DNA from: Escherichia phage JLBYU50
Reading direction: 5' to 3' (one strand)
DNA length: 64,000 nt
Sequence record: OK272470.1
Shown: positions 5,261 through 46,956 of the stretch, piece by piece
How positions within the stretch are numbered: the stretch's first letter is position 1
How the letters are laid out: every line of letters begins with the position of its first letter
Position numbers and translations under genes: made by a program
Notes under the pieces: generated by a model
The model's input: the letters and a program-made list of their open reading frames with translations, nothing else
Told to the model about the DNA's origin: nothing
Database searches by the model: none

Positions 5261-5263
5261 TCA

Positions 5264-5288
5264 AAGCCCCTTCGGGGGCTTATTGTTT
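5264..5288 (+). terminator. Rho-independent terminator after collagen-like fibre gene
   Basis: AGCCCC-TTCG-GGGGCT followed by TATTGTTT. Confidence 0.55.
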
Positions 5289-5299
5289 AAGGAGATTAA

Positions 5300-8119
5300 A
5301 TGTATCCTATTCCTTTATTTATGTCAACAACATCAGCTTCAGTAGTAACAGCTACATCTATAACCACTTCCTCTATTGGTATTGCAATAGTTGGTAGTAA
5401 AAAGCAACTGACATACACAGTTTCACCGGAAGATGGTGCGTTATTTGATATAGCTTTTTCATCTTCAGATAATACCAAAATGGTTATAGATAATAGTGGT
5501 ATGATGGAGTTTGTTGCCGAAGGTGGTTTTGATGCAATAATGACAGCTAAAAATAATTTAGGTGCTGTCTTAACTGATCAATCTGGTGGTTATGCTTCAG
5601 AATTAAGCGTGTACACTGAAAGTCTATCAGCTATGGATGTAGGCACTACTCAACAGTTGGTTGCTACAATCAGTCCAGAAGGTGCTAAAGATCTTCCAGA
5701 CATGGTAATTACGTACACCACAACAGATCCAGAAGTAGCTACTGTAAGCCCTACAGGATTAATAACTGCTCTTAAAGATGGTAATTGCCGTATAGGTTGT
5801 ACTGCAACTTATCAAGGAACAGTGGTGGCCTCTGATAGTTCTTATTTAGGTGTTAATGCTATTCCTGTTATTTCTAATGTAACAGCCGTGGCAAACAGCT
5901 ATGGAGACGTTCGTGTTGCTTGGGATGTAGCTGATCCGCTAGATGGTGATACTTATACTGTAGAAGTATTAGATTTAAGTAATAATAGTGTTCAGTGGAC
6001 TACAACAACCACGAATACTTACGCTTACTTTGATATCTCTGACTCTATTCCTCTTTATGGGTTTGCTCCAACATACCTTAAAATTAGCGTTAAGAGCACC
6101 AAAGCAGCAGCCGTTATCTTTAATAACTCAATAGCTACAGATGATTCGTTCATTAAAGAAGTTATTGTTTTTGCTGGACAAGATAACGTAAATGCACACT
6201 TTACAGAACTATCTGGTGCAAATAAAGCAGCAATGAGTAGCACAACAGCCCGTAATGCATATGCTACGCAACGTGGTTTAGCAAATGCTGAAGTTCTTCC
6301 GTTAAATACAGCTTCTGGATCATCAGCAGCAGATAAATATGCTGACGATAAAGCTGGAACAGGTACACCAGACAACTACTGGTATGATCTGGATAACACA
6401 GCAGATGGGCCATGCTTAACTAACTTTATCACTAAAGTCACACCTTATGCAAGTAAGGTTAAAGCCATTATTTGGGGACAAGGTGAAAATGATGCTGTAT
6501 CATCATCTTCAACTGTTGCAGGTAGATACAGTAACACTACACGTTACCATGATGCTACGATAGCTATCTTTGATAAGATGCGTACAATAGTTCCTGCTTC
6601 TCAAGCAAAAATTGTTTGGCAGATCCTGGGACGTTCTTATTTATATGGTGTAGAAGTTAATGGTGTGGATTGGCAGAAGTACAGAAATGTACAAAGAACC
6701 ATCTCTACAGCACGTGATGATGTTATCATTGGTTCTTGGGTAGATGGTGCTGAACGTTACAGTGGTTATGTTTATGAAGAAGGTATTGATGGTCGTATCC
6801 ATTATATTTCTTCTGTATACCAAACAGCAGCTACAAAACTTGCTAAATCAGCAGCAGACGGTACAGACCTAACATCAACGTCACCTGTTTGGGTTGATAT
6901 GGCTGTTCCAACTGGAGCAACAGCTACTTCCCAATCTAATCAAGATACAATTTTAGTATGGGATGCTCAAGGCTATAGTAAACACTACTTCCGTAATATT
7001 AACGTCTTAACAGCATCTGTATTAACTGAACAAACGCTTAATACGAACAGCTATACGTTTACCTATGCAGATCAAGTAGAACAATATGGTTTTGCAGCAG
7101 GAACTACTATATTTGATGTTGCATATTATGATGAAGCAAATGATGTGTTATCTCCTTTAGTACGTTTTAATGTTAACGTTACAGCAGGAACCGTAGAAGA
7201 TAAACCTGTAGTGATGGATTATGATTTAACACAAGAAACTCTTCCATCAGATGTTAAGGTTAATGGTGGGAACTCTTTTGCTCGTGCTTCTGGAGATACA
7301 CTTGTAGCCACTAACACCTTGGTTGCTCCGTTGGAGTATGTTGGCACTACCCCTGTAGGTAGACGTGTAACAGCTAACACAGCTACACAAATTTTTGTCA
7401 ACAACGCCTTAACAAGCGCAAGCCCGTGGGTAAAGACCAACTTAACTGTTTCAACTTCATCTGATAAATCTCCGGCTGGAACTACTGCCAATGTATTCAA
7501 ATTAACTCCGACTACAACATCTGGTAGTCATATCTTAACTGCAACATATACTAACGCGTACAACATATATGCCGGACGTAACTGGTCTGCCTCTGTTTTC
7601 TTGAAAGCGAACGGGATTACTAAGGCCAAACTAAGATTAAAAGCAGGAACTGAAGTTAATGAGGGTACTTTTGATTTAGCAGCAGGTACATTTACAGGAA
7701 GTGAAGCTAATATTATATCTATGGGTAACGGTTGGTATCGTGCTATTCTGCATAAAACAGGGATAGCCAAACAGTCCTCCATAAGTTTTGAAATAATTGC
7801 CTTGGATGCAACTGGTGCGGAGATTTTCGCTGGGGATGGTACTAGTAACCTTGCAGTTTGGTTGCCACAGCTTGAAGGTGCTCCTACAGGAGAAACATCA
7901 AAAGCTGGAGCGCCTTATGTCTGCACATATCCTGGAAGTTTAGGAGGAGTATCCTTCACTATACCAAGGAACGGACATACTGGTGTGGATGTTTACTATT
8001 CCAACGGGGACGTTGTTCGTGACGTATTCTCTGGTACGGCATCTACTTGGACAATAAACTACTCCAGCTTGTACGATTGGGGATCAGTCTTTATTACAGG
8101 TTTGAAATATTACGACTAA
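5300..8119 (+). CDS. Tail fibre / adhesin with Big_2 (bacterial Ig-like) domain and possible degenerate SASA/SGNH-esterase-like region
   Basis: 939 aa. Big_2-like segment (VITYTTTDPEVATVSPTGLITALKDGNCRIGCTATYQG). Motifs FAGQDNV and IIWGQGENDA resemble GQSN / QGE(S/N)D blocks of sialate-O-acetylesterase-type domains. Terminator at 8124-8151. Confidence 0.6.
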   Translation: MYPIPLFMSTTSASVVTATSITTSSIGIAIVGSKKQLTYTVSPEDGALFDIAFSSSDNTKMVIDNSGMMEFVAEGGFDAIMTAKNNLGAVLTDQSGGYASELSVYTESLSAMDVGTTQQLVATISPEGAKDLPDMVITYTTTDPEVATVSPTGLITALKDGNCRIGCTATYQGTVVASDSSYLGVNAIPVISNVTAVANSYGDVRVAWDVADPLDGDTYTVEVLDLSNNSVQWTTTTTNTYAYFDISDSIPLYGFAPTYLKISVKSTKAAAVIFNNSIATDDSFIKEVIVFAGQDNVNAHFTELSGANKAAMSSTTARNAYATQRGLANAEVLPLNTASGSSAADKYADDKAGTGTPDNYWYDLDNTADGPCLTNFITKVTPYASKVKAIIWGQGENDAVSSSSTVAGRYSNTTRYHDATIAIFDKMRTIVPASQAKIVWQILGRSYLYGVEVNGVDWQKYRNVQRTISTARDDVIIGSWVDGAERYSGYVYEEGIDGRIHYISSVYQTAATKLAKSAADGTDLTSTSPVWVDMAVPTGATATSQSNQDTILVWDAQGYSKHYFRNINVLTASVLTEQTLNTNSYTFTYADQVEQYGFAAGTTIFDVAYYDEANDVLSPLVRFNVNVTAGTVEDKPVVMDYDLTQETLPSDVKVNGGNSFARASGDTLVATNTLVAPLEYVGTTPVGRRVTANTATQIFVNNALTSASPWVKTNLTVSTSSDKSPAGTTANVFKLTPTTTSGSHILTATYTNAYNIYAGRNWSASVFLKANGITKAKLRLKAGTEVNEGTFDLAAGTFTGSEANIISMGNGWYRAILHKTGIAKQSSISFEIIALDATGAEIFAGDGTSNLAVWLPQLEGAPTGETSKAGAPYVCTYPGSLGGVSFTIPRNGHTGVDVYYSNGDVVRDVFSGTASTWTINYSSLYDWGSVFITGLKYYD

Positions 8120-8123
8120 TAAA

Positions 8124-8151
8124 AAAGGAGCCTAATGGCTCCTTTTCTTTT
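8124..8151. terminator. Bidirectional terminator at convergence of + late genes and - strand block
   Basis: AGGAGCC-TAAT-GGCTCCT flanked by A-run upstream and TTTTCTTTT downstream. Confidence 0.6.
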
Positions 8152-8154
8152 ATC

Positions 8155-8586
8155 TTAATCAGTGAAAATTACGCTTACATCTTCTTTAGAAAAGAGTTTA
8201 TGATCTTCACCTTTTGTCTCAAGAGTTTCATACAGGTTAAGAAGTTCTGAAACATCTTTCTCTACCAGTTTCTTCAATGTTGCAATTTTCTGTTTGCGAT
8301 TCTTAATACGTTCAGCTACAACCTTACGTTGGTATCCAGCAGTACGATAACCTGAGAAAGTTACACCAGTGAGACTTGCAGTTACAGGATCGTAATGACG
8401 TTCAATCTGAAATTTATTAAAAGGTACAGCGTCATCACGAATAATCTTCCCGCCATTACTTACTTGACGAAGACCAGTAACTTGTTCTAGTCGTGCCATA
8501 GAAATCTTTGGAGACAGACCAGAGTCTAGGTTCATACCATTGTTAATCAGTGCTTTCAGGGTGATTTTGCTGTTCAGTGTACTCAT
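8155..8586 (-). CDS. Hypothetical protein (start uncertain; overlaps upstream methyltransferase 3' end)
   Basis: 143 aa ORF on the - strand downstream of the MTase. Basic C-terminal region. No motif recognised. Confidence 0.4.
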   Translation of the reverse strand: MSTLNSKITLKALINNGMNLDSGLSPKISMARLEQVTGLRQVSNGGKIIRDDAVPFNKFQIERHYDPVTASLTGVTFSGYRTAGYQRKVVAERIKNRKQKIATLKKLVEKDVSELLNLYETLETKGEDHKLFSKEDVSVIFTD

Positions 8587-9274
8587 TTAGTCGTTCCTCC
8601 GCTTGCTTAAAAATATTTACATCGGCTTCACAGCCTAAGTATTCTCTACCTGTTAAAAGTGCCGCAACTTGTGTTGTTGCACTTCCAGAGAAGAAGTCTA
8701 AGACTACATCTCCTTCGTTGGTGTGTATATTAATAAGGTCACAAAACAAAGTCAAGTGTTTTTGTGTTGGATGAAAACGATCTGCTCCTTGATAGATAGG
8801 ATACTCAAACACACCCTTATGGTAGGAAGCATTGAAGGTTGGCTTAGAACCTTTAACACAAACAATAGCCATTTCTTTAGCGTTACTAAGGTAGTTAACA
8901 CCACTGTTGATGGGTACAGGGTTTGTTTTAATCCATTCAATAGTACGGAACATACGAAAACCAAGCGGTTCAAGGATTTCACGTAGCTCCTGGATCTTCC
9001 AGATATCATACCAAACTATGCAAGTACCACCTTTTCTAAGCACCCTGTAGGCTTCTTTGAATACTTCTTTAAAGTAAGGAATATCTACAACATCCCAATC
9101 ACCAAAGTTGTAAGATACACGGAATCTATCCGTATCTTTTCCAGTAGGCTCTCCAGATTGAAAATTTGTGTCACGAGAAATAGCATATGGTGGGTCAGTA
9201 AGAATCAAATCTACACTATTGCTTTCGAGGGTTTGCAGGTAGTTTAATGCGGTGTTGTTTACAAATTCGCTCAT
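8543..9274 (-). CDS. DNA methyltransferase (amino-MTase: N6-adenine or N4-cytosine), orphan
   Basis: 243 aa. Motif IV DPPY near N-terminus (ILTDPPYAISRD) and motif I FxGSxTT near C-terminus (LDFFSGSATT). No adjacent restriction endonuclease candidate. Confidence 0.8.
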   Translation of the reverse strand: MSEFVNNTALNYLQTLESNSVDLILTDPPYAISRDTNFQSGEPTGKDTDRFRVSYNFGDWDVVDIPYFKEVFKEAYRVLRKGGTCIVWYDIWKIQELREILEPLGFRMFRTIEWIKTNPVPINSGVNYLSNAKEMAIVCVKGSKPTFNASYHKGVFEYPIYQGADRFHPTQKHLTLFCDLINIHTNEGDVVLDFFSGSATTQVAALLTGREYLGCEADVNIFKQAEERLNEYTEQQNHPESTD

Positions 9275-9293
9275 TATATCTCCTTCAAAGAAA

Positions 9294-9311
9294 AGGAGCC
9301 GTTAGGCTCCT
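9294..9311 (-). terminator. Terminator-like hairpin between SSB-like gene and methyltransferase
   Basis: AGGAGCC-GTTA-GGCTCCT; on the - strand it is followed by TTTCTTT. Confidence 0.45.
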
Positions 9312-9334
9312 TATATTCACACAATATTTAACTA

Positions 9335-10282
9335 TTAGAAACAGTGCAGGAAGTTTCGACCATACTGCAAACCAATAGGAGCAAATGGGATATCATCATC
9401 GAAATCTTGAACAACAGGTTCTGGTTCTTTCGGTGCTGGCTCTTTCTTCTCTACTTTTTTAGTTTCTTTCTTAACTTCTTGTACTGGGGTAGACATTCCA
9501 CGGATAGCAGCAGCTACTTTATCAGACAAAGCAAGAACTTCACGAGCAGCTTCAATAATCTCTTCTGCCGTTACAGTTTTACCTGTATGATCACGACAAG
9601 CGTTAAGAATTGCGTGTCCAACTGAAGCACCAAGATCATAATCAGTCACATCAACGCCACGATCTTTAGCAATTTCTGCTTTCAGAGTAACAGTTGCAGA
9701 TTGTACCACACCAGCCAAGTCGAAAGCATCACCTTTCACACCAGCACGTAGAAGCTCCAGAGCGCCGTTTACAGCGTGTCCTGTTTCAATCCCTACGGTA
9801 TCACGTTTTTTGTAGTTAGGCTTGCTACCTTCGTTATTAGATGGCTTATTTCCACCTTTTGAAGAAGATTGTGCTTGCTGAACACCTTCTGTTGAAAGAA
9901 TAGTGATTTTACCTTTAGAGGAATTGTAGTATGTTTTGCCATTCCATTCAGAAGGTTTAACATCCATAGTTAGTTCTACACCTTTTTCGATAGTAACCCA
10001 CTTGTCACCATCTTTAACTTGCAGGTTTTCATGTTCTGGATGCAGTTTAACTTCACCTAGGCTAACCCAAACACCTTTATCATCAGCACTAGCACCTTTC
10101 TCTTTAATAAGCAGAGATGCTTTGTGAGTTGATTCAATTTTCTTATCTGGCTGACCTGCAACCTTAATATAAGAGACTTTCATTTCATCAAACTTATCCA
10201 GTTTGACATATTCAACGATACCTTCAGCCCAGAATGCTTCTTTTTTAGTACGACGGTCGATTTCAGAATTAATTACTGGCAT
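9335..10282 (-). CDS. Putative single-stranded DNA-binding protein with SSB-like acidic DFDDDIPF motif
   Basis: 315 aa in the replication module. Contains the exact SSB tail motif DFDDDIPF, but followed by 15 further residues. N-terminal half is K/W-rich and beta-rich (OB-fold-like). Terminator hairpin downstream at 9294-9311. Confidence 0.5.
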   Translation of the reverse strand: MPVINSEIDRRTKKEAFWAEGIVEYVKLDKFDEMKVSYIKVAGQPDKKIESTHKASLLIKEKGASADDKGVWVSLGEVKLHPEHENLQVKDGDKWVTIEKGVELTMDVKPSEWNGKTYYNSSKGKITILSTEGVQQAQSSSKGGNKPSNNEGSKPNYKKRDTVGIETGHAVNGALELLRAGVKGDAFDLAGVVQSATVTLKAEIAKDRGVDVTDYDLGASVGHAILNACRDHTGKTVTAEEIIEAAREVLALSDKVAAAIRGMSTPVQEVKKETKKVEKKEPAPKEPEPVVQDFDDDIPFAPIGLQYGRNFLHCF

Positions 10283-10298
10283 AAATTCTCCTCTATAA

Positions 10299-10697
10299 TT
10301 ACATTACTTTAACACAAAACTCTCGTAAAAGAGTAGCGTCAGTTTCTTCCAACAGGTATTTACCAAGACCAATACCAAATCCTATTTCACCACTTTCAAA
10401 ATGGAGGATTTGTATCTTTTCTCCACCAAGATTAATTACTTTTGCTTTTCCAGGATTATCCAAAACATCTCGTATTGTATCCTGTAGTAGCATAAGCTCA
10501 CGTTTTGTGATAGTGGTTTCAGATATCTCTTTGTTTTCTACTCTCACTGTTAAACGATTGTATCCACCAAAGAGACATAGTATTTGAATAAAAAAGGTAT
10601 TATCTTGAGGTTCAACATCTTTTTTGGTTAGCTCAAGACGATTAGTTTCTCTACTGTAGAACGTCTCGACTAAGATTTTAGAACGATTATCTGTCAT
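10299..10697 (-). CDS. Hypothetical protein
   Basis: 132 aa ORF in the - strand operon. No motif recognised. Confidence 0.4.
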   Translation of the reverse strand: MTDNRSKILVETFYSRETNRLELTKKDVEPQDNTFFIQILCLFGGYNRLTVRVENKEISETTITKRELMLLQDTIRDVLDNPGKAKVINLGGEKIQILHFESGEIGFGIGLGKYLLEETDATLLREFCVKVM

Positions 10698-22452: not shown

Positions 22453-23247
22453 TTACGCTTTTGCTCCAAATTTTTTAACCCACTCACCAAACTCTTCGGA
22501 TAACAGTTTATCGTAAAGTTCTTCATCAGACAAGGACAAATCTGCAATACCGATAAAATCAACATTATCGTATTCTTTTGCCAAGTCTTTCAGGAATTTA
22601 AAGTTTGCATTACCTACACCAACCATAAACCAGTAAACAGGTGTATTGCGGTGTTTGTTCAGTAAGCTACGTACTGCTGAAGTATCCATGTTCTCCCCGT
22701 CAGTTTGGAAGAAAATCATTGCAGGAGTACGATCAACTTGTGCATCAGTATCTACAACCTGTTCTACAACAGTACGTGTTACTTCTACAAGTTCTTTTTT
22801 ACCAGTTAGTTTAGCAAGGAAACCTTTAGCTGGAACTTCTTCATACTCAACGACTTCGCGTGTAATATTTTTCATAGGTACACTACCGAAGTATGTATCA
22901 TAAATGTCTTGCATTACTGGAGCATAAGCTGTACCACCATTGATGCAAACATTAGACATACAAGAGCCGACATAATCATCATATACATCAGCCGTTGCAG
23001 GAGGCAGTTCAAAAGAAGAACTATTGAAAGCCCACATGTCAATCTGCGCATTATCATCAAACTTCATACCAAACGGCAGCAGCTTACCTACAAAATCACT
23101 AACAGTGCCATCACGATATAGCTCACACATACTACCCGAAATATCTAAGGCGCTACCGACACGAAGAACAACATCGTTAATCTTTTTCTTACGCAGAGAT
23201 ACAGTAAGAGTTTCTTGACGTTTTTTAAGACTGATTTTATTGGACAT
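22453..23247 (-). CDS. von Willebrand factor A (vWA) domain protein, TerY-like
   Basis: 264 aa. N-terminal ISLKK motif then MIDAS-like DxSxS (VGSALDISGSM) and vWA beta-strands (MIFFQTDGEN; VYWFMVGVG). Confidence 0.6.
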   Translation of the reverse strand: MSNKISLKKRQETLTVSLRKKKINDVVLRVGSALDISGSMCELYRDGTVSDFVGKLLPFGMKFDDNAQIDMWAFNSSSFELPPATADVYDDYVGSCMSNVCINGGTAYAPVMQDIYDTYFGSVPMKNITREVVEYEEVPAKGFLAKLTGKKELVEVTRTVVEQVVDTDAQVDRTPAMIFFQTDGENMDTSAVRSLLNKHRNTPVYWFMVGVGNANFKFLKDLAKEYDNVDFIGIADLSLSDEELYDKLLSEEFGEWVKKFGAKA

Positions 23248-23248
23248 A

Positions 23249-23518
23249 TTATTTCTCCTTTCTGACTGTAATGTTAGTAACTTCTAAATCCACTTCTACC
23301 ACTTCTGTATCATATAAAATACAGTTAAGTTGACCTCTTTGTGAACCGTTCAGACACATTGCTTGGTTTGTATTAACCTTAATAAACACTAAGTTTATGA
23401 ACGTATCTAAACCAGAATCTTGATAGGCAACATAATATACAAATGTATCACCTGTGTCAAGTTCTCCAAAACATTTAGGTTCATCTGATTTGTCGTCTTT
23501 GATATTAAATTTAAGCAC
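23249..23518 (-). CDS. Hypothetical protein
   Basis: 89 aa ORF in the Ter-like cluster. Confidence 0.4.
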   Translation of the reverse strand: MLKFNIKDDKSDEPKCFGELDTGDTFVYYVAYQDSGLDTFINLVFIKVNTNQAMCLNGSQRGQLNCILYDTEVVEVDLEVTNITVRKEK

Positions 23519-24074
23519 TGTCTTCTCCTTTACCTGCTCTCAAGCCTAAATAGAAAGCCTCTCTGGTGATTTTTTGCAACTCGTTTAAAGAGATAGTTAC
23601 AACTAAATCATCTTCAATTTCTAGCTTTGAGTCTTCTTCTGTCTCAATGCAAGTATTATGCACTTTGTGGTAAGGATTGTCAACACGTTTAAATTTATTA
23701 TTTTCAGTGCTGAAGAAGCAATCTGGATCTTCTTCTCCATCACCCCAACCCTGGTTAGGGTCTTCTTCAGATCTTTCTGTTGGGATCTCACCTGTAAAGT
23801 GCTCTTCTAATACCAGAGCAATCCCATCTCCAAGATCGGAAGAGAACATCAAATTACAAACTTCTTCCCAAGGCATAGACCACTTAAATCTTTTACGATT
23901 GCCATGTTTATCTTCTTCGTTAGAGAAAACACTACCATAGCTATCATAATTGCCATACATCTCTTCAACAACTTTACCACCTTTCAAAAGAAATAGGTAG
24001 CAAGGAGAGCCATCGAAAGAGGTAGAAAGAGCAGCATTACCAGACTCTTTGCACAAGAAACTAAAACACCCCAT
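23511..24074 (-). CDS. Hypothetical acidic protein
   Basis: 187 aa, Cys/acidic-rich. No motif recognised. Confidence 0.45.
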   Translation of the reverse strand: MGCFSFLCKESGNAALSTSFDGSPCYLFLLKGGKVVEEMYGNYDSYGSVFSNEEDKHGNRKRFKWSMPWEEVCNLMFSSDLGDGIALVLEEHFTGEIPTERSEEDPNQGWGDGEEDPDCFFSTENNKFKRVDNPYHKVHNTCIETEEDSKLEIEDDLVVTISLNELQKITREAFYLGLRAGKGEDSA

Positions 24075-24274
24075 TATACACCAACCTTAAGATCAATTAT
24101 AGCCAAAGTGGTTTCAGAGTGTGTTTGCTCGTCTACAGGTGCAGTCATGTGATAATACAAAAAATCTTCGGCATCATACCAATCTGACTCTTGACCTTGT
24201 TTCCAACCATCAATGAAAGCATCTTCCATAATTGTTTGTAACTCTTCACGAGTTAAGTGAATATCTTTACTCAT
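24074..24274 (-). CDS. Hypothetical small acidic protein
   Basis: 66 aa ORF, ATGA-type coupling to neighbours. Confidence 0.35.
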   Translation of the reverse strand: MSKDIHLTREELQTIMEDAFIDGWKQGQESDWYDAEDFLYYHMTAPVDEQTHSETTLAIIDLKVGV

Positions 24275-24507
24275 TACACATTCTCCTCTTTTACCAATTC
24301 CATCGTTGAACTATCAAAACCATCTTTAGAAGAATAGGTATAGACAGAACGTAGTTCTCGCAGGACAGTGAATACATTGGGATCATCTAACCAAGCATCC
24401 TGGAGGAGAACATAACGATCTTCATTGTCGTACTGGACAGCAATCATAGAACCAGACAGTTTGTAAATTTTAATATTCATAATATATTTCTCCTTAAAGT
24501 AGACCAC
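24274..24507 (-). CDS. Hypothetical small protein (start uncertain)
   Basis: 77 aa ORF overlapping the TelA-like gene 3' end; an internal start is possible. Confidence 0.35.
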   Translation of the reverse strand: MVYFKEKYIMNIKIYKLSGSMIAVQYDNEDRYVLLQDAWLDDPNVFTVLRELRSVYTYSSKDGFDSSTMELVKEENV

Positions 24508-25597
24508 GTTTAACAGTTTGAATCATACCATCTTCAAGAGATTGCACTTCTTGAATGTAATCAATACGCGCAGCACGGGCTTCAGTGTTGATTCGGTTAG
24601 TTTCTTCCAACATTTTAACTAAGTTTTCTTGATCGCGACGTAATGTCTCAATATCCAATACTTGACGATTAGCAAGTTGTGTAGCTTCAATTTGGTTTTG
24701 TGCCGCCAGATCACTACCCATTGCAATAGCAGCATTAAATTCATTCAGCACATTGTTCTGTGTATCGGCTGCTTTCTTCTGGCGTAGACTTTCAATATAC
24801 ATAGAAAAGTTTGCAGAGTAAGCAGGGATAACATTATTCACAATATTACGGGCTGATCGCATCAAACTTGCAGATACTTTCTGCATACTTTGTACACGTG
24901 GCCCCATCTGAACACACAGTAAGCGTAGGGCTTTCAGGTCTGCAATACGAATTTCAAGCAGATCCATAGTATCACGAGTACGTTGACGCTCTTCTACCTC
25001 ATTTTCAGGCAGTGTATTAAGGCGAACTTCTTCTTTTTCATACGTAGCTGTTAGAAGCTCTATATCTCTGTTTAAGCTAAGAGCATATTTGGCAATAGCC
25101 TCTTCTAAACGTTGCAGATATCGTAAAGAATCTTCTTCTTTTTTCAAGTCTGTTTGGAGTGTCTTTACCAAACCTTCAATACGATTATTGATGGTGTCAA
25201 ATTCTCCAAACAAATCTTCTTTCATACCTAATACTTTCTTAACTAGTTTACCTAAGCCTTTAGATTGCTTAATAGAGTTAGGATCAAGTTGCTTTGCTTG
25301 CTTAATAAGTGCAGTTAAACGTTCACTCATTTCATCCCCCTGAGATGAACGCTGGTGTTTAAGCACTTCAGCATTAAGGTTACGAAGAGTAAGTCCTGCA
25401 TCAGCACCAACTTGTTCAATCTCTTCACGAGACATTGGAGGCAGCATTTGTACAGGTCGTGCAACAGCAGGGGCATATACAGGGCTTGCATCCATAGCAC
25501 TTGGAGCAAATAAAGACTTACTTTTTTCTGTTGTTGCCGTGAATACACTCATTTCAGACGGTTTGCTTTTTACGGCACTGATAAAAGGACTGGACAT
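24494..25597 (-). CDS. telA: TelA-like toxic-anion-resistance family protein
   Basis: 367 aa, largely coiled-coil. C-terminal block QVLDIETLRRDQENLVKMLEE...AARIDYIQE resembles the conserved TelA/KlaB region. Confidence 0.55.
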   Translation of the reverse strand: MSSPFISAVKSKPSEMSVFTATTEKSKSLFAPSAMDASPVYAPAVARPVQMLPPMSREEIEQVGADAGLTLRNLNAEVLKHQRSSQGDEMSERLTALIKQAKQLDPNSIKQSKGLGKLVKKVLGMKEDLFGEFDTINNRIEGLVKTLQTDLKKEEDSLRYLQRLEEAIAKYALSLNRDIELLTATYEKEEVRLNTLPENEVEERQRTRDTMDLLEIRIADLKALRLLCVQMGPRVQSMQKVSASLMRSARNIVNNVIPAYSANFSMYIESLRQKKAADTQNNVLNEFNAAIAMGSDLAAQNQIEATQLANRQVLDIETLRRDQENLVKMLEETNRINTEARAARIDYIQEVQSLEDGMIQTVKRGLL

Positions 25598-25665
25598 TCA
25601 ATTTCCTCCATATTCTTTAGTAGATGGTGATACCTCTGTACCACCATCATAACACAAATTAAGTA

Positions 25666-26517
25666 TTAAACAAACATATCTAAATAATTTGTAGTAATAA
25701 ACGCCCCATCTGCTTCCAGATTAACATAACCAGTAGCATTAGTGGTTAAGAAATCCAGATCGAAGGACTCTTTAACACCCCGTACCTCAACACGAGAGAT
25801 ATCGAATACAGGTAGTGTAACAGCCTCTTCGTGCAATACCGTACCTTTGTAGGTTGCCTTAATGATAAACTTGATATTACCCGTTCCAGCATCATACAAA
25901 ACACTTTCAAACCCTTTGAGAGTATATTTATCACCAGAAGTGAAGTGCAAAGTTGCTTTGTTTACAGTACGTTTTTTACGAGGAGTTCCTTTCACACGTT
26001 TATGATCACTACGTTTTTTGTACTTAGGAATGAATACAAACGATACATTCTGAAGAAAGGTATCAACATCAAGGATTTTAATATCCTCTGTTGCAGCAAA
26101 TTTTGAAGTCGTTGCATCAAAATGCTTTTCCCTGCGATCATACATAAAGATATCAAACCGATCTTCTAAATCAAACAAATTATGTATTTTAATTTCAGAA
26201 TGCTTGCGCATTGCAGCAACCTTGAACTCTTCAAAACGTGGGTGTTCTACAAGTTCTTCAAGTTTTACACCAAAGACAGTATATTGCTTCGGAGTTTTTT
26301 CTGGTGTTGGCATTACAGAAGCATAATCCCCGATTGCGCTCTTAAAGCAAAATTGTTCTTGACCTGTATTTTTACCAACGAATTTACAGTATTCATCATT
26401 GTGCATACTTTCCTTAGTAGTACCAACAAACTCAAAACCATCTTTATTCTTCTCAAGAATTTCTTGATTAAAGATCCAACCTTCCAGGCGATACACTTTA
26501 CCAACTTCTAGTTTCAT
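25666..26517 (-). CDS. Hypothetical protein
   Basis: 283 aa with a basic patch (KKRSDHKRVKGTPRKKRT). No motif recognised. Confidence 0.45.
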   Translation of the reverse strand: MKLEVGKVYRLEGWIFNQEILEKNKDGFEFVGTTKESMHNDEYCKFVGKNTGQEQFCFKSAIGDYASVMPTPEKTPKQYTVFGVKLEELVEHPRFEEFKVAAMRKHSEIKIHNLFDLEDRFDIFMYDRREKHFDATTSKFAATEDIKILDVDTFLQNVSFVFIPKYKKRSDHKRVKGTPRKKRTVNKATLHFTSGDKYTLKGFESVLYDAGTGNIKFIIKATYKGTVLHEEAVTLPVFDISRVEVRGVKESFDLDFLTTNATGYVNLEADGAFITTNYLDMFV

Positions 26518-26552
26518 CTGTTTCTCCTTCTTATTTAATCTGTATTAAATTA

Positions 26553-27143
26553 TTAACGACGACGTGAGCTACTAAAACTACGTTTCGACGAAGAATAACT
26601 TTTCGAAGACTTACTATAAGAGCTAATAGGACTTGAGTAAGACTTACGAGCAGAGTAATCACTATTCACTTTTGTTGTTGATGGGCGTGAATACGTTTGT
26701 ACACTTTGCTGCTTAATTGTGTTTTGTTTAGTGGTTGTATATGTATTTCCTTGTTTATCATAAAAACTATGCTTTTGTGTTGTATATGCTTTGCTATTAG
26801 TTGTAGGAGCAGCGTTGTTATTGATAATTGTTGTATTGCTACCGCCATCTCTATAACCACCACCGCCACTATTACCACTCAACATATGACCAAGAAGCAT
26901 ACCTGTAGCAAACTCACCTACACCAGAAGAACCACTGCCGCCTCCTTGCACAACAACTGTTGAAGGTTGTGCAGGTGCTGCTTGAACAACTTGAGGTGCA
27001 GGTTGATTTACATATTGTTCATCTACCATCTGATTTGGTGTTTGTTGGTAACGTTGATTTTGTACATTTTCAGAATCATCACAACCTACCAGCAATACAC
27101 TACCTAAAACAACTGCAACAATAAAAGATTTAATGTTTTTCAT
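26553..27143 (-). CDS. Lipoprotein with Gly-rich and Ser/Tyr-rich low-complexity regions
   Basis: Start at MKNIKSF after RBS gagggt. Signal peptide with lipobox (LLVGC). Gly-zipper-like segment and Ser-rich basic C-terminus. Confidence 0.5.
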   Translation of the reverse strand: MKNIKSFIVAVVLGSVLLVGCDDSENVQNQRYQQTPNQMVDEQYVNQPAPQVVQAAPAQPSTVVVQGGGSGSSGVGEFATGMLLGHMLSGNSGGGGYRDGGSNTTIINNNAAPTTNSKAYTTQKHSFYDKQGNTYTTTKQNTIKQQSVQTYSRPSTTKVNSDYSARKSYSSPISSYSKSSKSYSSSKRSFSSSRRR

Positions 27144-27336
27144 TTGTAACCCTCTCATTTAAAGTCTCAACACAATTTTTAAAATCCCTAGAGAAACAAT
27201 ACATCTGTTCTCCGTTCCTGTTGATAGTAATTGTATGGTTATCAATATATGTTGTCAAGATAAAAATCAAACAAAACAACCCTAGAGCAAAACAAATATT
27301 TTCAAACAGAATCCAAAGAACACGTAAAACCACCAT
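27130..27336 (-). CDS. Small membrane protein
   Basis: 68 aa with one strongly hydrophobic helix (ICFALGLFCLIFILTTYI). Confidence 0.35.
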   Translation of the reverse strand: MVVLRVLWILFENICFALGLFCLIFILTTYIDNHTITINRNGEQMYCFSRDFKNCVETLNERVTNEKH

Positions 27337-27375
27337 CAGATCACCTCAATAAAGCCCCCGAAGGGGCTTAATGAA

Positions 27376-28353
27376 TTAAGCAACAGCCTGGTCTTCTTTT
27401 TCAGGGAAGATTAAACTTGCAATAACACCCAACCCAAGAGTACCTAACACAATATACATACTGATCGTCGGATCAATGTGTGCTGGTAGGAAACTCACTT
27501 TTGCGTGCAGAGTTTCTGCAAACGGGTGATACATCAGTTTTACACCCACAAATACCAGGACTACGATAACTGCTTTCTCCAGATGAACCAAATACTTCAG
27601 TGCAACACTAAGAACAAAGAACAGAGCGCGTAAACCTAAGATTGCACAGAGCATCGAAGAGAACACCAGCAGAGGTTCTTGTGTCACTGCAATTACTGCT
27701 GGAACAGAGTCTACTGCAAAGATTACGTCAACCATTTCCATTACAAACACACAAACCAGAGCCGGAGTTGCTACACGAACACCATTTTTGATTGTGAAGA
27801 ACTTCTCACCATCCATCTGATCAGATACAGGGAACAGCTTACGAACAATGCGAGTAGCCCAGTGTTTAGAGTAATCAACTTCTGCATCATTATCTCCAGC
27901 GAATACCATTTTAGCCGCACAGAAAAGGATGACAGCACCGAAGAAGATATTAACATACCAGCCCAAACTCAACAAGTAAGTACCTACTGCTACAAACACA
28001 CCTCGGAAGACAATCGCACCTGCAATACCCCAAAGTAGAATCTTGTGTTGCAAGTGTGTGCTTTTAATACCAAAACTTGCGAATACTGCCACAAATACTA
28101 CTAAGTTATCTACAGAAAGAGATTTCTCCAACACATACCCACTCAAGAACAAACTCGCAAAATCAGCACCGTGTTGGAAGTATACAAAACCATAGTAGGC
28201 TAATGATACCCCAATCCAGAAAATTGACCAACCAACTGCCGATTTAAATGAAATCTCTTTGTTTTCTCTGTGTCCAAAGAAATCAATACAAATCGACAAC
28301 ACTAAAATACCCACTAAAACAACCACATCAATAATTGGGAAACCCAGTTGCAT
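27376..28353 (-). CDS. terC: TerC-family integral membrane protein
   Basis: 325 aa polytopic membrane protein. Signature motif EKSLSVDN and several further TM helices. Terminator-like hairpin upstream at 28372-28390. Confidence 0.8.
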   Translation of the reverse strand: MQLGFPIIDVVVLVGILVLSICIDFFGHRENKEISFKSAVGWSIFWIGVSLAYYGFVYFQHGADFASLFLSGYVLEKSLSVDNLVVFVAVFASFGIKSTHLQHKILLWGIAGAIVFRGVFVAVGTYLLSLGWYVNIFFGAVILFCAAKMVFAGDNDAEVDYSKHWATRIVRKLFPVSDQMDGEKFFTIKNGVRVATPALVCVFVMEMVDVIFAVDSVPAVIAVTQEPLLVFSSMLCAILGLRALFFVLSVALKYLVHLEKAVIVVLVFVGVKLMYHPFAETLHAKVSFLPAHIDPTISMYIVLGTLGLGVIASLIFPEKEDQAVA

Positions 28354-28908: not shown

Positions 28909-29286
28909 TTATTTCAGTTTGTAAACAATTACATTTAAACCTTTGTTTACTAGAGTTTCTTCGATCATAAGTTTTACAATATTCCAAGAACCTCCAGCCA
29001 AACCACAACCAAGCATTGGTAAACCTACAATTTTACCGCCTGAAGATACAACATCGTCTCCCATACTATCTAGCGCATTGTAGATAGCTTCATAATTCAG
29101 GTCACGCTTACCTTCCTCACGACGACTATAACCATATTGTCCATATAAATTATAAATTGTCAAATTGTTTTCTGTATATTTGGTAAACGTACCTAATTTT
29201 TTATAATCACCACGTTTAGTGGCACAATCTGCTTTAAACGCACCAGGCCACTTGCTTTTAATTTTTGGTGCAATACCACTACCCAT
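28909..29286 (-). CDS. Hypothetical protein with weak macro-domain-like Gly-rich motifs
   Basis: 125 aa. MGSGIAPKI and GCGLAGGSW loosely resemble the phosphate-binding loops of macro (ADP-ribose-binding) domains. Shorter than a canonical macro domain; tentative. Confidence 0.3.
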   Translation of the reverse strand: MGSGIAPKIKSKWPGAFKADCATKRGDYKKLGTFTKYTENNLTIYNLYGQYGYSRREEGKRDLNYEAIYNALDSMGDDVVSSGGKIVGLPMLGCGLAGGSWNIVKLMIEETLVNKGLNVIVYKLK

Positions 29287-30232
29287 AGTGCAAAAACAGT
29301 TGAAGATGCTCTTCTCCTGACTTATGGTCTACAGCTACAACATAACGATTACCGCTAAACAAACCTTGTGCTGTCATACCGTCAATATCGGTATCTGCCG
29401 AAACATCTCCTGTACGATCTACACCGTTAACTTTCAGGAGTTTAACTTCTTTTGCAGCATAGCGGTGTTCAGTAATACTGATACCCATTAATGCAAGTGC
29501 ATCAGAGAATTTGTCATTAGGGTAACGGTTAAGTTCTTCTACTAGTGACTGAACAATATCAAAGTTCAAGTCCACGGAAAGATTATAAAGCGTTTCAAAA
29601 TCTGGTAAAAAGGCTTTGTTCTCCAGATTTTTAGCCAGATAGTCATCCATAGTAGCTTTAGGTAGTTTCTTATAGCTAAAGCTGTAGAAAATACGGCTAG
29701 GACGATTACGCAAAAATTCTGATACATAACCATCATTTTTAGTCAATACAAACAGCTTGTCATAGCCACCAACACCATCCAGCAGGGTAAGCAAACCATC
29801 CTGTGCATCTTTTTCAGCATACAGTTTATCAAATTCATCGATCATAATCATCACAGGTTGTGTGATTTTAGACATAAAATTGATAAAGCCTTCACCATTA
29901 AAAGCACTACCGATAGAAATAGTAGGAATACCCATTTCACGAAGAGCAGAAGATAGCATTTTAGCTTGCAAAGTTTTACCGCTACCCTTCGTACCCTCAA
30001 GGAGAACACCTGTGTTTTTACCTTTGCGGCTAAGGAACGTCTTGATAATACGTTCTGATTTATCATCAGTATCACCGTATGTTACTGAAGGGACTTCCAT
30101 ATCGTTTTTAGGATACAGGAAGAACTCACCACTTTGAGTAACACCTACACCAAAAGTTCCTGCTGGAATTTCTTCAATATCTGTACCAGACTTCTGACGC
30201 AGGAAGATTTGATTGCCGAATACTGTAAACAT
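29279..30232 (-). CDS. AAA-family ATPase (paralog A)
   Basis: 317 aa. Walker A GTKGSGKT, Walker B MIMIDEFDK, classical-AAA second region LLTLLDG and NRPSR. About 45% identical by eye to 44210-45337. Confidence 0.7.
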   Translation of the reverse strand: MFTVFGNQIFLRQKSGTDIEEIPAGTFGVGVTQSGEFFLYPKNDMEVPSVTYGDTDDKSERIIKTFLSRKGKNTGVLLEGTKGSGKTLQAKMLSSALREMGIPTISIGSAFNGEGFINFMSKITQPVMIMIDEFDKLYAEKDAQDGLLTLLDGVGGYDKLFVLTKNDGYVSEFLRNRPSRIFYSFSYKKLPKATMDDYLAKNLENKAFLPDFETLYNLSVDLNFDIVQSLVEELNRYPNDKFSDALALMGISITEHRYAAKEVKLLKVNGVDRTGDVSADTDIDGMTAQGLFSGNRYVVAVDHKSGEEHLQLFLHYG

Positions 30233-44209: not shown

Positions 44210-45337
44210 ATGAAATACACGATTTATGGTGATATTGTAAGTGTAAATAAAGATATGGGCGTGGAATCTAACTATCTTCCACCTGGATTCTATACTGTTA
44301 GTCGTGATCCCCTTGGCAATTATTTTTTAAGCCGTGGTAATCTGACAGGTGTACCGGATGTTTTGTATGGTGAAACAGAAAAACGAGCAAATCACGTTAT
44401 CCGTACATTCCATCGCCGGAGTGCACAAGGTAAAAACACAGGCTTGCTTCTGACAGGAACTAAGGGCAGTGGTAAAACTATGTTAGCCAAACTCATTAGT
44501 CGTGACCTTGTAGAAGAAGGTATTCCAACTATTATGGTTACTCAAGCCTACAGTGATGCTAATTTCATTGAACTTATTAGCAAGATCACCGACAAAGCAG
44601 TGATTATTTTTGACGAGTTTGATAAAGTGTATGAGAAGAAACAAGATCAAGAAGCACTTCTCACTTTGTTAGATGGTACTGGCAGTGGTAATAAACTGTT
44701 TATTCTGACTAAAAACAGTGGTTTTATTTCTGAATTCTTTTTAAATCGTCCTAGTCGTGTGTTTTATAATTTTAATTATGATAAAATCTCACTAGAAACT
44801 ATGATTGACTATTTAGATAAAAACCTAGATAACAAAGCACACTTTGATAATTTCCAAAGACTTTGGGATGTAAGTTTAGAGTTGTCCTTTGATGTGATCC
44901 AAGGTATAGTAGAAGAACTTAATTTCTACCCTGATTTATCCTTTAAAGAATGCATCTCTATGATGGGCGTTTCTTTAGGTGGTGGTAATAAATGGGATAT
45001 CAGCAGTGTTGTTATTAATGGGAAACTTCAGAAAGTTAGCTGGGTATCTAGTTGGCATAACTTTACACCTGCAATCTTTTTAGGTGGCTCGTGCACACTA
45101 GACGTGTACTTGTCATCTCCAAGTGATGCAGACTCTAAAGAAGCCCTTGCTAATAGCTCTTACGTGGTTTTTGATGATGAAGGAGATGCTCGAATTCCAT
45201 TGAATGCGACAAAAATGAAAGCAGATCTTATTACAGGCGGTAAAATCGTTGTGTTTAGTGATGATCCAGAAGATTCTTTCCGTATTGTTCTGGAGCCAAC
45301 TATCACCAATGGTGCAACTTTGGCAAGTGTGTTTTAA
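44210..45337 (+). CDS. AAA-family ATPase (paralog B)
   Basis: 375 aa. Walker A GTKGSGKT, Walker B IIFDEFDK, LLTLLDG, NRPSR; colinear with the - strand paralog at 29279-30232. Terminator at 45353-45378. Confidence 0.7.
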   Translation: MKYTIYGDIVSVNKDMGVESNYLPPGFYTVSRDPLGNYFLSRGNLTGVPDVLYGETEKRANHVIRTFHRRSAQGKNTGLLLTGTKGSGKTMLAKLISRDLVEEGIPTIMVTQAYSDANFIELISKITDKAVIIFDEFDKVYEKKQDQEALLTLLDGTGSGNKLFILTKNSGFISEFFLNRPSRVFYNFNYDKISLETMIDYLDKNLDNKAHFDNFQRLWDVSLELSFDVIQGIVEELNFYPDLSFKECISMMGVSLGGGNKWDISSVVINGKLQKVSWVSSWHNFTPAIFLGGSCTLDVYLSSPSDADSKEALANSSYVVFDDEGDARIPLNATKMKADLITGGKIVVFSDDPEDSFRIVLEPTITNGATLASVF

Positions 45338-45352
45338 GTAAGCCAGCAAATA

Positions 45353-45378
45353 AAAACCCGCTTCGGCGGGTTTTCTTG
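45353..45378 (+). terminator. Rho-independent terminator after AAA ATPase paralog B
   Basis: AACCCGC-TTCG-GCGGGTT followed by TTCTTG. Confidence 0.55.
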
Positions 45379-45411
45379 TATTAATACCAGATTTAATAAA
45401 AGGAGTAGTAG

Positions 45412-46404
45412 ATGGGAACACCAAAATCATGGGAACAATATAAAGAAGAATTAACACCTCTTGCTAAAAATCGCAATATTCAAATCCTGGGTTATGTTGG
45501 TGAATGGAAAGGGAATAAAACAAAACTTGATTTGTTGTGTCATTGTGGGTATAGATGGCAAAGTACAGCTATTACGGACTTTAAACGTGGTGGTGGTTGC
45601 CCCAGTTGTAATTTAGATAGCTTACGCAAACGTATAATCATCCCTGACGATCAACACATACAAGATTTCATGAATACTGGCGCTTTCCAACCAGGAACCA
45701 TCTTCATCAATACAGGGGAACGTACTGGAAATAGTGACAGTATTTGGTGTATAAAATGTCCTATTTGCTCATACGACGAATATGTACAAGCTGGAGTATG
45801 TGATGGTAAGTTTTATTCTACAAAGAGTAGTCTTAAAAACGGGAGTCTCGCTTGTCGTTGTTCTACACGTTATGTGTTTAGCGATCAGCAGTTAACATAC
45901 CGCATGAGAAAGGAGTTGCAGAAAAAAGATTTGATTTTTATTGAATGGGTAGGCAAACCTTCTGTAAGATTAGGTAAGTTTAAATATCTTTGTCTTGTAC
46001 ATGGGGAGCAGATAGGGAGTGCTAGTAACTTATTAAGCCACGGTCGAGGTTGTCCTATGTGTGCTGGTCATAGTCAGCAGCAGTTATATATTAATATTGT
46101 TAAGGATGATAATATTATAGTTGCTCTTAAGTTTGGTATAGCTAAAGATAGTGATAGGCGATTAAACATTCAAAATAGCCGTAATCTGTTTTTTATGGAA
46201 CGTATTTGTTTATATGATTTTAGCACAGTGAAACAGTGTAAGGCTGCTGAAAGAGCTATAAAGAAAAAATTAAAAACTGGTATTTTAACAGCAAGAGAGT
46301 TGAAAGACGGTCATACAGAAACAGTAAGTGTTTCTGATTTGGAAAATCTTCAAAAAATTATTACACAATATGGTGGCAAATTAGTATATAGTAAGGAGGT
46401 GTAA
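45412..46404 (+). CDS. Zn-ribbon repeat protein with C-terminal T5orf172/GIY-YIG-like domain
   Basis: 330 aa. Three Cys clusters (CHCGYRW...CPSC; CIKCPIC; GRGCPMC). C-terminal FGIAKDSDRRLNIQNSRNL resembles the T5orf172 motif (IGRT.N...RL...). Tentative. Confidence 0.45.
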   Translation: MGTPKSWEQYKEELTPLAKNRNIQILGYVGEWKGNKTKLDLLCHCGYRWQSTAITDFKRGGGCPSCNLDSLRKRIIIPDDQHIQDFMNTGAFQPGTIFINTGERTGNSDSIWCIKCPICSYDEYVQAGVCDGKFYSTKSSLKNGSLACRCSTRYVFSDQQLTYRMRKELQKKDLIFIEWVGKPSVRLGKFKYLCLVHGEQIGSASNLLSHGRGCPMCAGHSQQQLYINIVKDDNIIVALKFGIAKDSDRRLNIQNSRNLFFMERICLYDFSTVKQCKAAERAIKKKLKTGILTARELKDGHTETVSVSDLENLQKIITQYGGKLVYSKEV

Positions 46405-46956
46405 ATGCGGATTACTGATAAGTATGTGTTCTTCTTTTCAGCAAAAGATGAATTTAGCAACTGGTATCTATCATCTTTTATTGAACCTTTAGCTCCCAAG
46501 TATAATAATTCTATTACAAGTTCTGTTGAATTTACTTGTGTGGAACAATATATGATGTGGAGAAAAGCATGTTTATTTTATGATTACAACATTGCATCTT
46601 CTATTTTAACCGGAGATCTAAGATATACAGGAGAAAAAGAACAAGCATATTATAAGCGACTAGGCAGATTAGTTAAAGATTATGATGAAGATACCTGGAC
46701 TTCTTTACGGGAGAAGATTGTCAAACGTGGTTTGTATCTTAAATACACACAAAATGAAGATCTCAAAAATAAACTTATAGCCTACGCAGATAAGGAGTTC
46801 GTAGAGGCAAGCCCTTATGATTCTATTTATGGTATCAAAATGGGGATGTGGGATCGGGACGTGGAAAATAAGGATTGTTGGAAAGGACAAAATCTTTTAG
46901 GAAAATGGCATACAGACCTTGCTGTTTATCTAAAAGCACAATCTGATATTTCCTGA
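46405..46956 (+). CDS. NADAR-family protein (YbiA-like)
   Basis: 183 aa. Blocks YVFFFSAKDEFSNWY, CVEQYMMWRKACLF, EASPYDSIYGI match NADAR/DUF1768 (F..FSNFY ... EQ.YM..KA ... EASP.D.IWGIG). Confidence 0.7.
   Translation: MRITDKYVFFFSAKDEFSNWYLSSFIEPLAPKYNNSITSSVEFTCVEQYMMWRKACLFYDYNIASSILTGDLRYTGEKEQAYYKRLGRLVKDYDEDTWTSLREKIVKRGLYLKYTQNEDLKNKLIAYADKEFVEASPYDSIYGIKMGMWDRDVENKDCWKGQNLLGKWHTDLAVYLKAQSDIS

Follow-up and report, generated by a model that had tools for sequence, protein, structure and literature searches.

Gene content of the locus

The 64,000 nucleotides analysed here (hereafter the window; record OK272470.1, Escherichia phage JLBYU50) come from a phi92-like (Justusliebigvirus) E. 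coli phage which is 98-99% identical to VivaForever, inny, alia, phi92 and others, and the features discussed below are collected in Table 1. The ORF of interest encodes 125 aa on the minus strand from an ATG start, which is an internal Met codon of the native gene, and it overlaps the stop of the ORF for AAA ATPase paralog A by 8 nt. This bears out what an earlier reading made from the letters alone (the sequence-only reading) had described, namely an ORF with two Gly-rich loops next to ATPase paralog A; the loops were located at residues 2-9 (GSGIAPKI) and 93-101 (GCGLAGGSW). Directly downstream of the ORF lies a tellurite-resistance-like set of genes (22453-28353, minus strand) which is conserved in phi92-like phages.

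Table 1. Features of the macro-domain locus, of the DNA missing from it and of the NADAR locus in the window
Feature	Coordinates	Strand	Evidence or remark
vWA-TerF-like ORF	22453-23247	-	
TelA-like ORF	24494-25597	-	
TerC	27376-28353	-	
3' remnant of macro-domain gene	28909-29286	-	Native codons 114-238; profile searches, identity to relatives
Five surviving native macro codons, N-C-F-C-T (native residues 109-113)	29287-29301	-	Frame translations
Deletion junction	29301-29302	.	blastn against phage inny and junction alignment; 2,460 bp missing
Chimeric, shortened AAA ATPase paralog A	29279-30232	-	310 native codons plus 7 out-of-frame codons (QLFLHYG), then stop
Missing: last 76 codons of 386-aa AAA ATPase paralog A (phi92 gene_190)			
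Missing: two small ORFs (phi92 genes 189 and 188)			
Missing: HAD-type hydrolase (gene 187)			PF00702, 26.3 bits, just under the 26.4-bit cutoff; phrog_14393 'hydrolase', 1.2e-118
Missing: ComF-like phosphoribosyltransferase (gene 186)			PRTase_3, PF15610, 1.3e-41
Missing: first 108 codons of macro protein (phi92 gene_185, 'phosphatase / Tk.4-like')			
AAA ATPase paralog B, 375 aa	44210-45337	+	47% identical to paralog A over the first 254 residues
Intact NADAR-domain gene, 183 aa	46405-46956	+	PF08719, E 2.5e-36, 125.8 bits against a cutoff of 35.1

The likeness to macro domains that had been proposed for the ORF held up in profile searches. Its score against Pfam PF01661 (Macro) was 24.5 bits, above the gathering cutoff of 22, in a match that spans profile positions 10-114 of 118, compared to 31.3 bits over positions 2-114 for a full-length relative, and against phrog_335 (a phage macro family labelled 'phosphatase') the ORF gave an E value of 2.4e-38 in a match beginning at column 85. 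The N-terminal block that had seemed to be lacking is indeed absent, as the Pfam match starts from profile position 10 and that to the DarG profile from position 26-27. A tblastn search with the ORF returned matches in 1,681 phage records. The resemblance is well above chance and, going by these matches, the ORF is a true macro-domain homolog. It retains the GSGIA loop (residues 2-6), Gln50 and the phosphate-binding loop GCGLAGG (residues 93-99). In the homolog alignment G4, A6 and further loop positions were invariant or nearly so, and Gln50 (in NLYGQ) was invariant, being the Gln of SCO6735-type proteins and not a Lys.

Every one of the 125 residues is also found at the C-terminus of inny_154, of the VivaForever 'phosphatase' (CDS0246) and of phi92 gene_185 (YP_009012517.1), an identity of 100%; these proteins together represent a cluster of 160 member sequences (P0102). 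The phi92-type macro gene and the ORF also occupy the same place, upstream of the gp184/gp183/TerC homologs. The phi92-type protein has 238 aa (244 aa with an alternative upstream start) and a complete macro domain, whereas the window copy is without the first 113 residues. The sequence-only reading had hesitated between a truncated and a novel minimal form, and finding this longer, 238-aa ortholog in relatives settles the question: the truncated reading holds, with the 238-aa form intact in 54 close relatives and a deletion of 2,460 bp in the window.

A deletion joins the AAA ATPase and macro-domain genes

When the inny locus (L001) was compared with the window by blastn, its positions 1-2525 aligned with window positions 31826-29302 and its positions 4986-10375 with 29301-23913, at 98-99% identity, and L001 2526-4985 had no counterpart in the window. 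VivaForever showed the same pattern, this being the sole kb-scale difference over about 47 kb compared. The lost DNA begins at codon 311 of the ATPase and ends with codon 108 of the macro gene, and its content (Table 1) was read from the annotations of inny, VivaForever and phi92. Downstream of nrdD-nrdG, phi92-like phages normally have the AAA ATPase (386 aa) first, then two small ORFs, next the HAD hydrolase and the ComF-like PRTase, and last the macro gene. The junction alignment revealed no microhomology between the two ends, suggestive of illegitimate recombination. The deletion length of 2,460 bp is a multiple of three and the breakpoints are blunt, lying inside two genes and off the gene borders; blunt ends within two genes, without microhomology, argue against a designed knockout and again for illegitimate recombination. 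It is likely that a single event of this kind removed the 2,460 bp in the phage genome.

The deletion has left a shortened ATPase whose QLFLHYG tail is read out of frame from the macro gene, the native ATPase having 386 aa. Against phrog_2376 the window ATPase covers profile positions 2-288 of 363, compared to 2-359 for the full-length protein of inny. On the macro side, the conserved Asn codon persists in the DNA at 29299-29301, upstream of the sole start and hence outside the ORF; there is no in-frame ATG, GTG or TTG between the upstream stop and the ATG of the ORF. An in-frame ATPase-macro fusion was considered and rejected, since the two ORFs are in different frames and a deletion divisible by three leaves this unchanged. 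In principle, ribosomes slipping by +1 at the T5 run (CTG TTT TTG C) just before the ATG might yield a fusion, since the macro gene is read in the +1 frame with respect to the ATPase and the T-run lies within a 15-nt stretch that is open in both. The two frames were brought together by the deletion, though, so that the site cannot have evolved for recoding; neither a stimulatory element nor a rare A-site codon can be seen, and the fusion would still miss beta1, beta2 and the motif His. We regard recoding here as extremely improbable.

The reverse event, an insertion in the relatives with the window as the ancestral state, was rejected because both flanking ORFs are incomplete compared to their wider families. 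A contiguous match across the junction was found in 0 of 54 near-identical phage records (0 of 58 in another search), and all 54 closely related phages keep the macro gene intact, with the two halves matching at separate places. The exact junction k-mer was absent from the viral, metagenome and species-representative genome contig collections, suggesting that the variant is not widespread. The junction does occur in Logan contig SRR25464451_3 (6,173 bp), which passes through it without branching and agrees with the window at every position (100% identity), and a Logan contig of run SRR25464451 also carries the chimeric 317-aa ATPase. A single sequencing run is the only source for the deletion, a point against it. 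That the junction could be an assembly artefact, or belong to a minor defective sub-population of a phage whose true locus is intact, is very unlikely. The zero microhomology at the breakpoints and the tracing of the junction to data from one run speak for such an artefact, but the Logan contig was separately built, there is no breakpoint repeat able to collapse an assembly and both flanks are otherwise perfectly collinear with the relatives. At the nucleotide level the remnant differs by 2 nt from inny and by 6 nt from VivaForever; all of these differences are synonymous, so the deletion looks recent and the gene appears to have been under purifying selection beforehand.

Parts of the macro domain missing from the ORF

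Complete homologs from phages and bacteria have 145-195 aa and phi92-type full-length proteins 230-244 aa. The N-terminal sequence 'GDL...IAHCCNCFxTMGSGIA' was present in all homologs except P0015 (an independent truncation, described below) and a few products of 101-140 aa from contigs shorter than about 1.2 kb. Alignments of 47-50 homologs gave the consensus N-terminus 'M..Y..GDL......vD.IAHCCNCF.TMGSGIAP', in which the His, Asn and Cys are at least 90% conserved across homologs, and all three precede the Met at which the window ORF begins.

In an AlphaFold2 model of full-length P0102 (244 aa, from the alternative start) the macro domain had a pLDDT above 90, and the TM-score normalised to the target was 0.88-0.91 against TARG1 and 0.80 against DarG. 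The model of the fragment alone is also macro-like (pLDDT 88.5) and, in agreement with the earlier suggestion, resembles the macro domains of TARG1, BT1257 and DarG; its TM-scores normalised to the target reach only 0.65-0.69. The best Foldseek matches were the same for the fragment and the full-length protein (TARG1, BT1257, DarG and SCO6735). The confident fragment model mirrors the alignment and does not test stability with strands missing. The elements lost before M120 of P0102, which corresponds to Met1 of the ORF, are a strand at 91-95, a helix at 98-104 and a strand at 109-114, that is beta1 with its GD motif, alpha1, and beta2 with the H-x-x-N-C motif. In the macro fold the strand that ends in H-x-x-N (beta2) is central in the sheet, and the beta1 GD strand bears the Asp that contacts adenine. 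The ORF does not encode the complete three-layer alpha/beta/alpha macro fold, nor does it contain the conserved Asn/His block ('NAAN' or H-x-x-N) and the beta1 GD, and the idea that it might be a novel minimal fold was abandoned, as two of six core strands and the His/Asn motif are missing.

Comparison with SCO6735 (5E3B) places the loss at functional residues. His24, Val25 and Asn27 of that protein align with native His106, Cys107 and Asn109, which lie upstream of the ORF's Met, so that the window ORF is without their equivalents. SCO6735 needs Asn27, Gln85 and Gly128 for activity, with Asn27 reported as important for turnover and mutation of Gln85 abolishing activity (PMC9411070), and Asn22 of DarG is likewise reported to be important for turnover (PMC13309987). 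A product without two core strands and the key active-site Asn is expected to be unfolded or inactive. Judged from its sequence, the 125-aa remnant is most likely inactive and would represent a loss of function.

Translation and status of the fragment

No Shine-Dalgarno core was found in the 25 nt before the ATG of the ORF (GAGCATCTTCAACTGTTTTTGCACT); an SD-like motif stands ahead of 43 of the 63 window ORFs of at least 100 aa, both neighbours included. The ATG overlaps the stop codon of the ATPase (ATGGGTAG), and reinitiation at this stop, giving weak translation at most, is the only plausible route to a product. With the motif, the strands and the ribosome-binding site missing, it is unlikely that the ORF provides a working second ADP-ribose-processing function beside the NADAR gene, as the sequence-only reading had entertained.

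Some protein could nevertheless be made by translational coupling, given the 8-nt overlap of the ATG with the upstream stop, and catalytically dead SCO6735 still inhibits DarT through interaction (PMC9411070). The fragment might accordingly be a functional minimal macro module, made by termination-reinitiation, which binds ADP-ribose or binds and inhibits a DarT-like toxin without catalysis. Both glycine loops and Gln50 are kept, making residual ADP-ribose or DarT binding conceivable, the AlphaFold2 model of the fragment is confident and macro-like, and the remnant shows zero nonsynonymous changes and no decay, which is compatible with continued selection; these points all count against reading the ORF as a remnant. 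On the other side, every complete homolog has the N-terminal 25-45 residues with the near-invariant His, Asn and Cys, the start is exactly the first Met past a breakpoint that also cuts the neighbouring gene, no SD precedes the ATG, the established topology makes beta2 central and gives beta1 the adenine-contacting Asp, and the 125-aa form is known from one sample only. We consider a functional minimal module to be very unlikely. Selection may instead have acted on the deletion, as an escape from a host defence that senses the lost module (ATPase C-terminus, HTH-like ORF, HAD, ComF-like PRTase and macro), or the fragment made by coupling may bind a partner such as a DarT-like toxin without any catalysis; such an account, in either form, is very improbable.

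The ORF is very probably a pseudogene-like remnant of the 238-aa macro gene, cut by the 2.46-kb deletion, and not a minimal fold. That the remnant opens at an internal Met directly ahead of the first glycine loop would be a matter of chance, and such a start after the breakpoint explains why the ORF resembles a short macro domain that has lost its N-terminal block. The description that fits it best is that of a truncated allele of a known gene rather than a member of a new minimal class. For annotation this means that the ORF should be marked as a macro-domain gene truncated at its 5' end, and the ATPase upstream of it as truncated at the C-terminus. From this natural isolate it also follows that the phage can grow on its host without six genes, namely those for the C-terminus of ATPase paralog A, for two small ORFs, for the HAD hydrolase and the ComF-like PRTase, and for the macro protein.

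The native protein and its relation to known macro domains

The native 238-aa protein appears to consist of an N-terminal extension of about 85 aa followed by an ALC1-like macro domain. Sequence searches with the full-length protein against solved structures matched SCO6735 (3.2e-15), BT1257 (4.2e-15), human TARG1 (3.5e-10) and the Thermus DarG macro domain (9e-4), the structures concerned being 5E3B, 2FG1, 2AFC, 4J5Q and 5M31, and the best structural matches of the full-length model were TARG1/C6orf130 (4J5S) and the DarG macro domain (5M3E). Among ALC1-like macro domains the native protein falls into the SCO6735/BT1257 type, within the TARG1/DarG class. The position of the catalytic Lys (K84 in TARG1, K80 in DarG) is equivalent to Q85 of SCO6735 and Gln50 of the ORF, and Gln at this position marks the SCO6735/BT1257 subclass. 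SCO6735 (5E3B) and BT1257 (2FG1/2AFC), like the phage protein, have Gln at this site (NLYGQ compared to NMIGQ), and they share with it the H-x-C-N motif and the GCGLAGG loop, but identity to the native phage protein is only about 28% and the phage protein has the extra N-terminal extension. This extension (residues 1-88 of P0102) is beta-rich and was modelled with a pLDDT of about 50-78, with no Pfam match and no structural match reported; it is common to P0103 (230 aa, 53% identity) and to a MazG fusion described below. An older, putative label for the native protein is 'Appr-1''-p phosphatase'.

DarG was the only match in PADLOC (2.8e-13 for the full-length protein) and in NCBIfam, where the DarG model NF048014 scored 39.6 bits with the ORF and 47.3 bits with the full-length protein against a cutoff of 250, over profile positions 4-147 of 338. 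The phage protein differs from DarG in having Gln for Lys, in having no C-terminal DarT-binding domain and in having no adjacent darT; no darT-like neighbour of the macro locus was found in the window or in the annotations of its relatives. An identity of the ORF as DarG was rejected on these grounds, the score being below cutoff and both the DarT-binding domain and a darT neighbour being absent.

SCO6735 strips ADP-ribose from thymidine in DNA and so shields cells from DarT (PMC9411070). DarG-like macro domains of phages, such as AdfM (PhiKZ gp104), counter DarTG2 (PMC13309987), and phage NADARs (AdfN) counter DarTG1 (PMC11825919). AdfM, a stand-alone phage DarG-like macro domain, probably corresponds in function to the intact phi92-type protein, although it is only 24% identical to P0102 (pairwise E 0.004, over 131 columns with 21% gaps) and retains the DarG-type Lys where P0102 has Gln. 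The intact protein probably removes ADP-ribose from DNA (thymidine) to counter DarT2-type defence. Its HAD hydrolase and PRTase neighbours could instead mean small-molecule ADP-ribose or nucleotide chemistry; nothing specific to a HAD-PRTase-macro module was found in a survey of NAD and ADPr functions in viruses (PMC9503650) or in the phi92/Justusliebigvirus literature. AdfB (Gp145) of ICP1 was considered as a macro relative and rejected, as it is an unrelated 77-aa, non-enzymatic DarT binder. A comparable case is the RB69 allele of AdfN, which carries a premature stop (PMC11825919): in this lytic coliphage a counter-defence gene that removes ADP-ribose occurs naturally in a truncated form, presumably without activity. 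That allele has the NADAR fold and its C-terminal part is cut off by the stop codon, whereas the window ORF has lost its N-terminal part by deletion.

The NADAR locus and variation at the macro locus

The NADAR gene of the window is intact. It was located by a Pfam scan; a regular expression for the NADAR motif gave no match in the six frames of the window. We infer that phi92-like phages normally carry both types of ADP-ribose eraser and that the macro type has been lost in the window phage. Since NADAR (possibly anti-DarT1) is kept and the macro protein (possibly anti-DarT2) is lost, the phage offers a ready-made knockout for probing the role of the phi92-type macro protein.

Both ATPase paralogs head clusters that end in an ADP-ribose glycohydrolase gene (44210-46956 on the plus strand and 28909-30232 on the minus strand). 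Paralog B is followed by an endonuclease and then NADAR, and native paralog A by the HAD, PRTase_3 and macro genes; the C-termini of the two paralogs are unrelated. The endonuclease gene (45412-46404, plus strand) is the most divergent stretch relative to VivaForever, at about 90.6% compared to about 98.8% elsewhere, and its product is shorter (330 aa, compared to 390 aa annotated), which suggests a variable or mobile cassette.

A second, independent 5' truncation of the macro gene was found in another phi92-like contig (Logan SRR14739079_756, 139.7 kb; locus L003, 4025-5345). Here the remnant P0015 has 114 aa, starts at '..ADCATKRGD' and is without even the GSGIA loop. Upstream of it lies a 187-aa ORF in which a homolog of the N-terminal extension (31% identity to residues 16-94 of P0102, E 1e-8) is joined to a MazG-like pyrophosphatase (phrog_1247, 1.1e-21). 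This fusion suggests that the extension of about 85 aa is a portable module for different nucleotide-processing enzymes, and the macro locus looks like a hotspot for cassette exchange.
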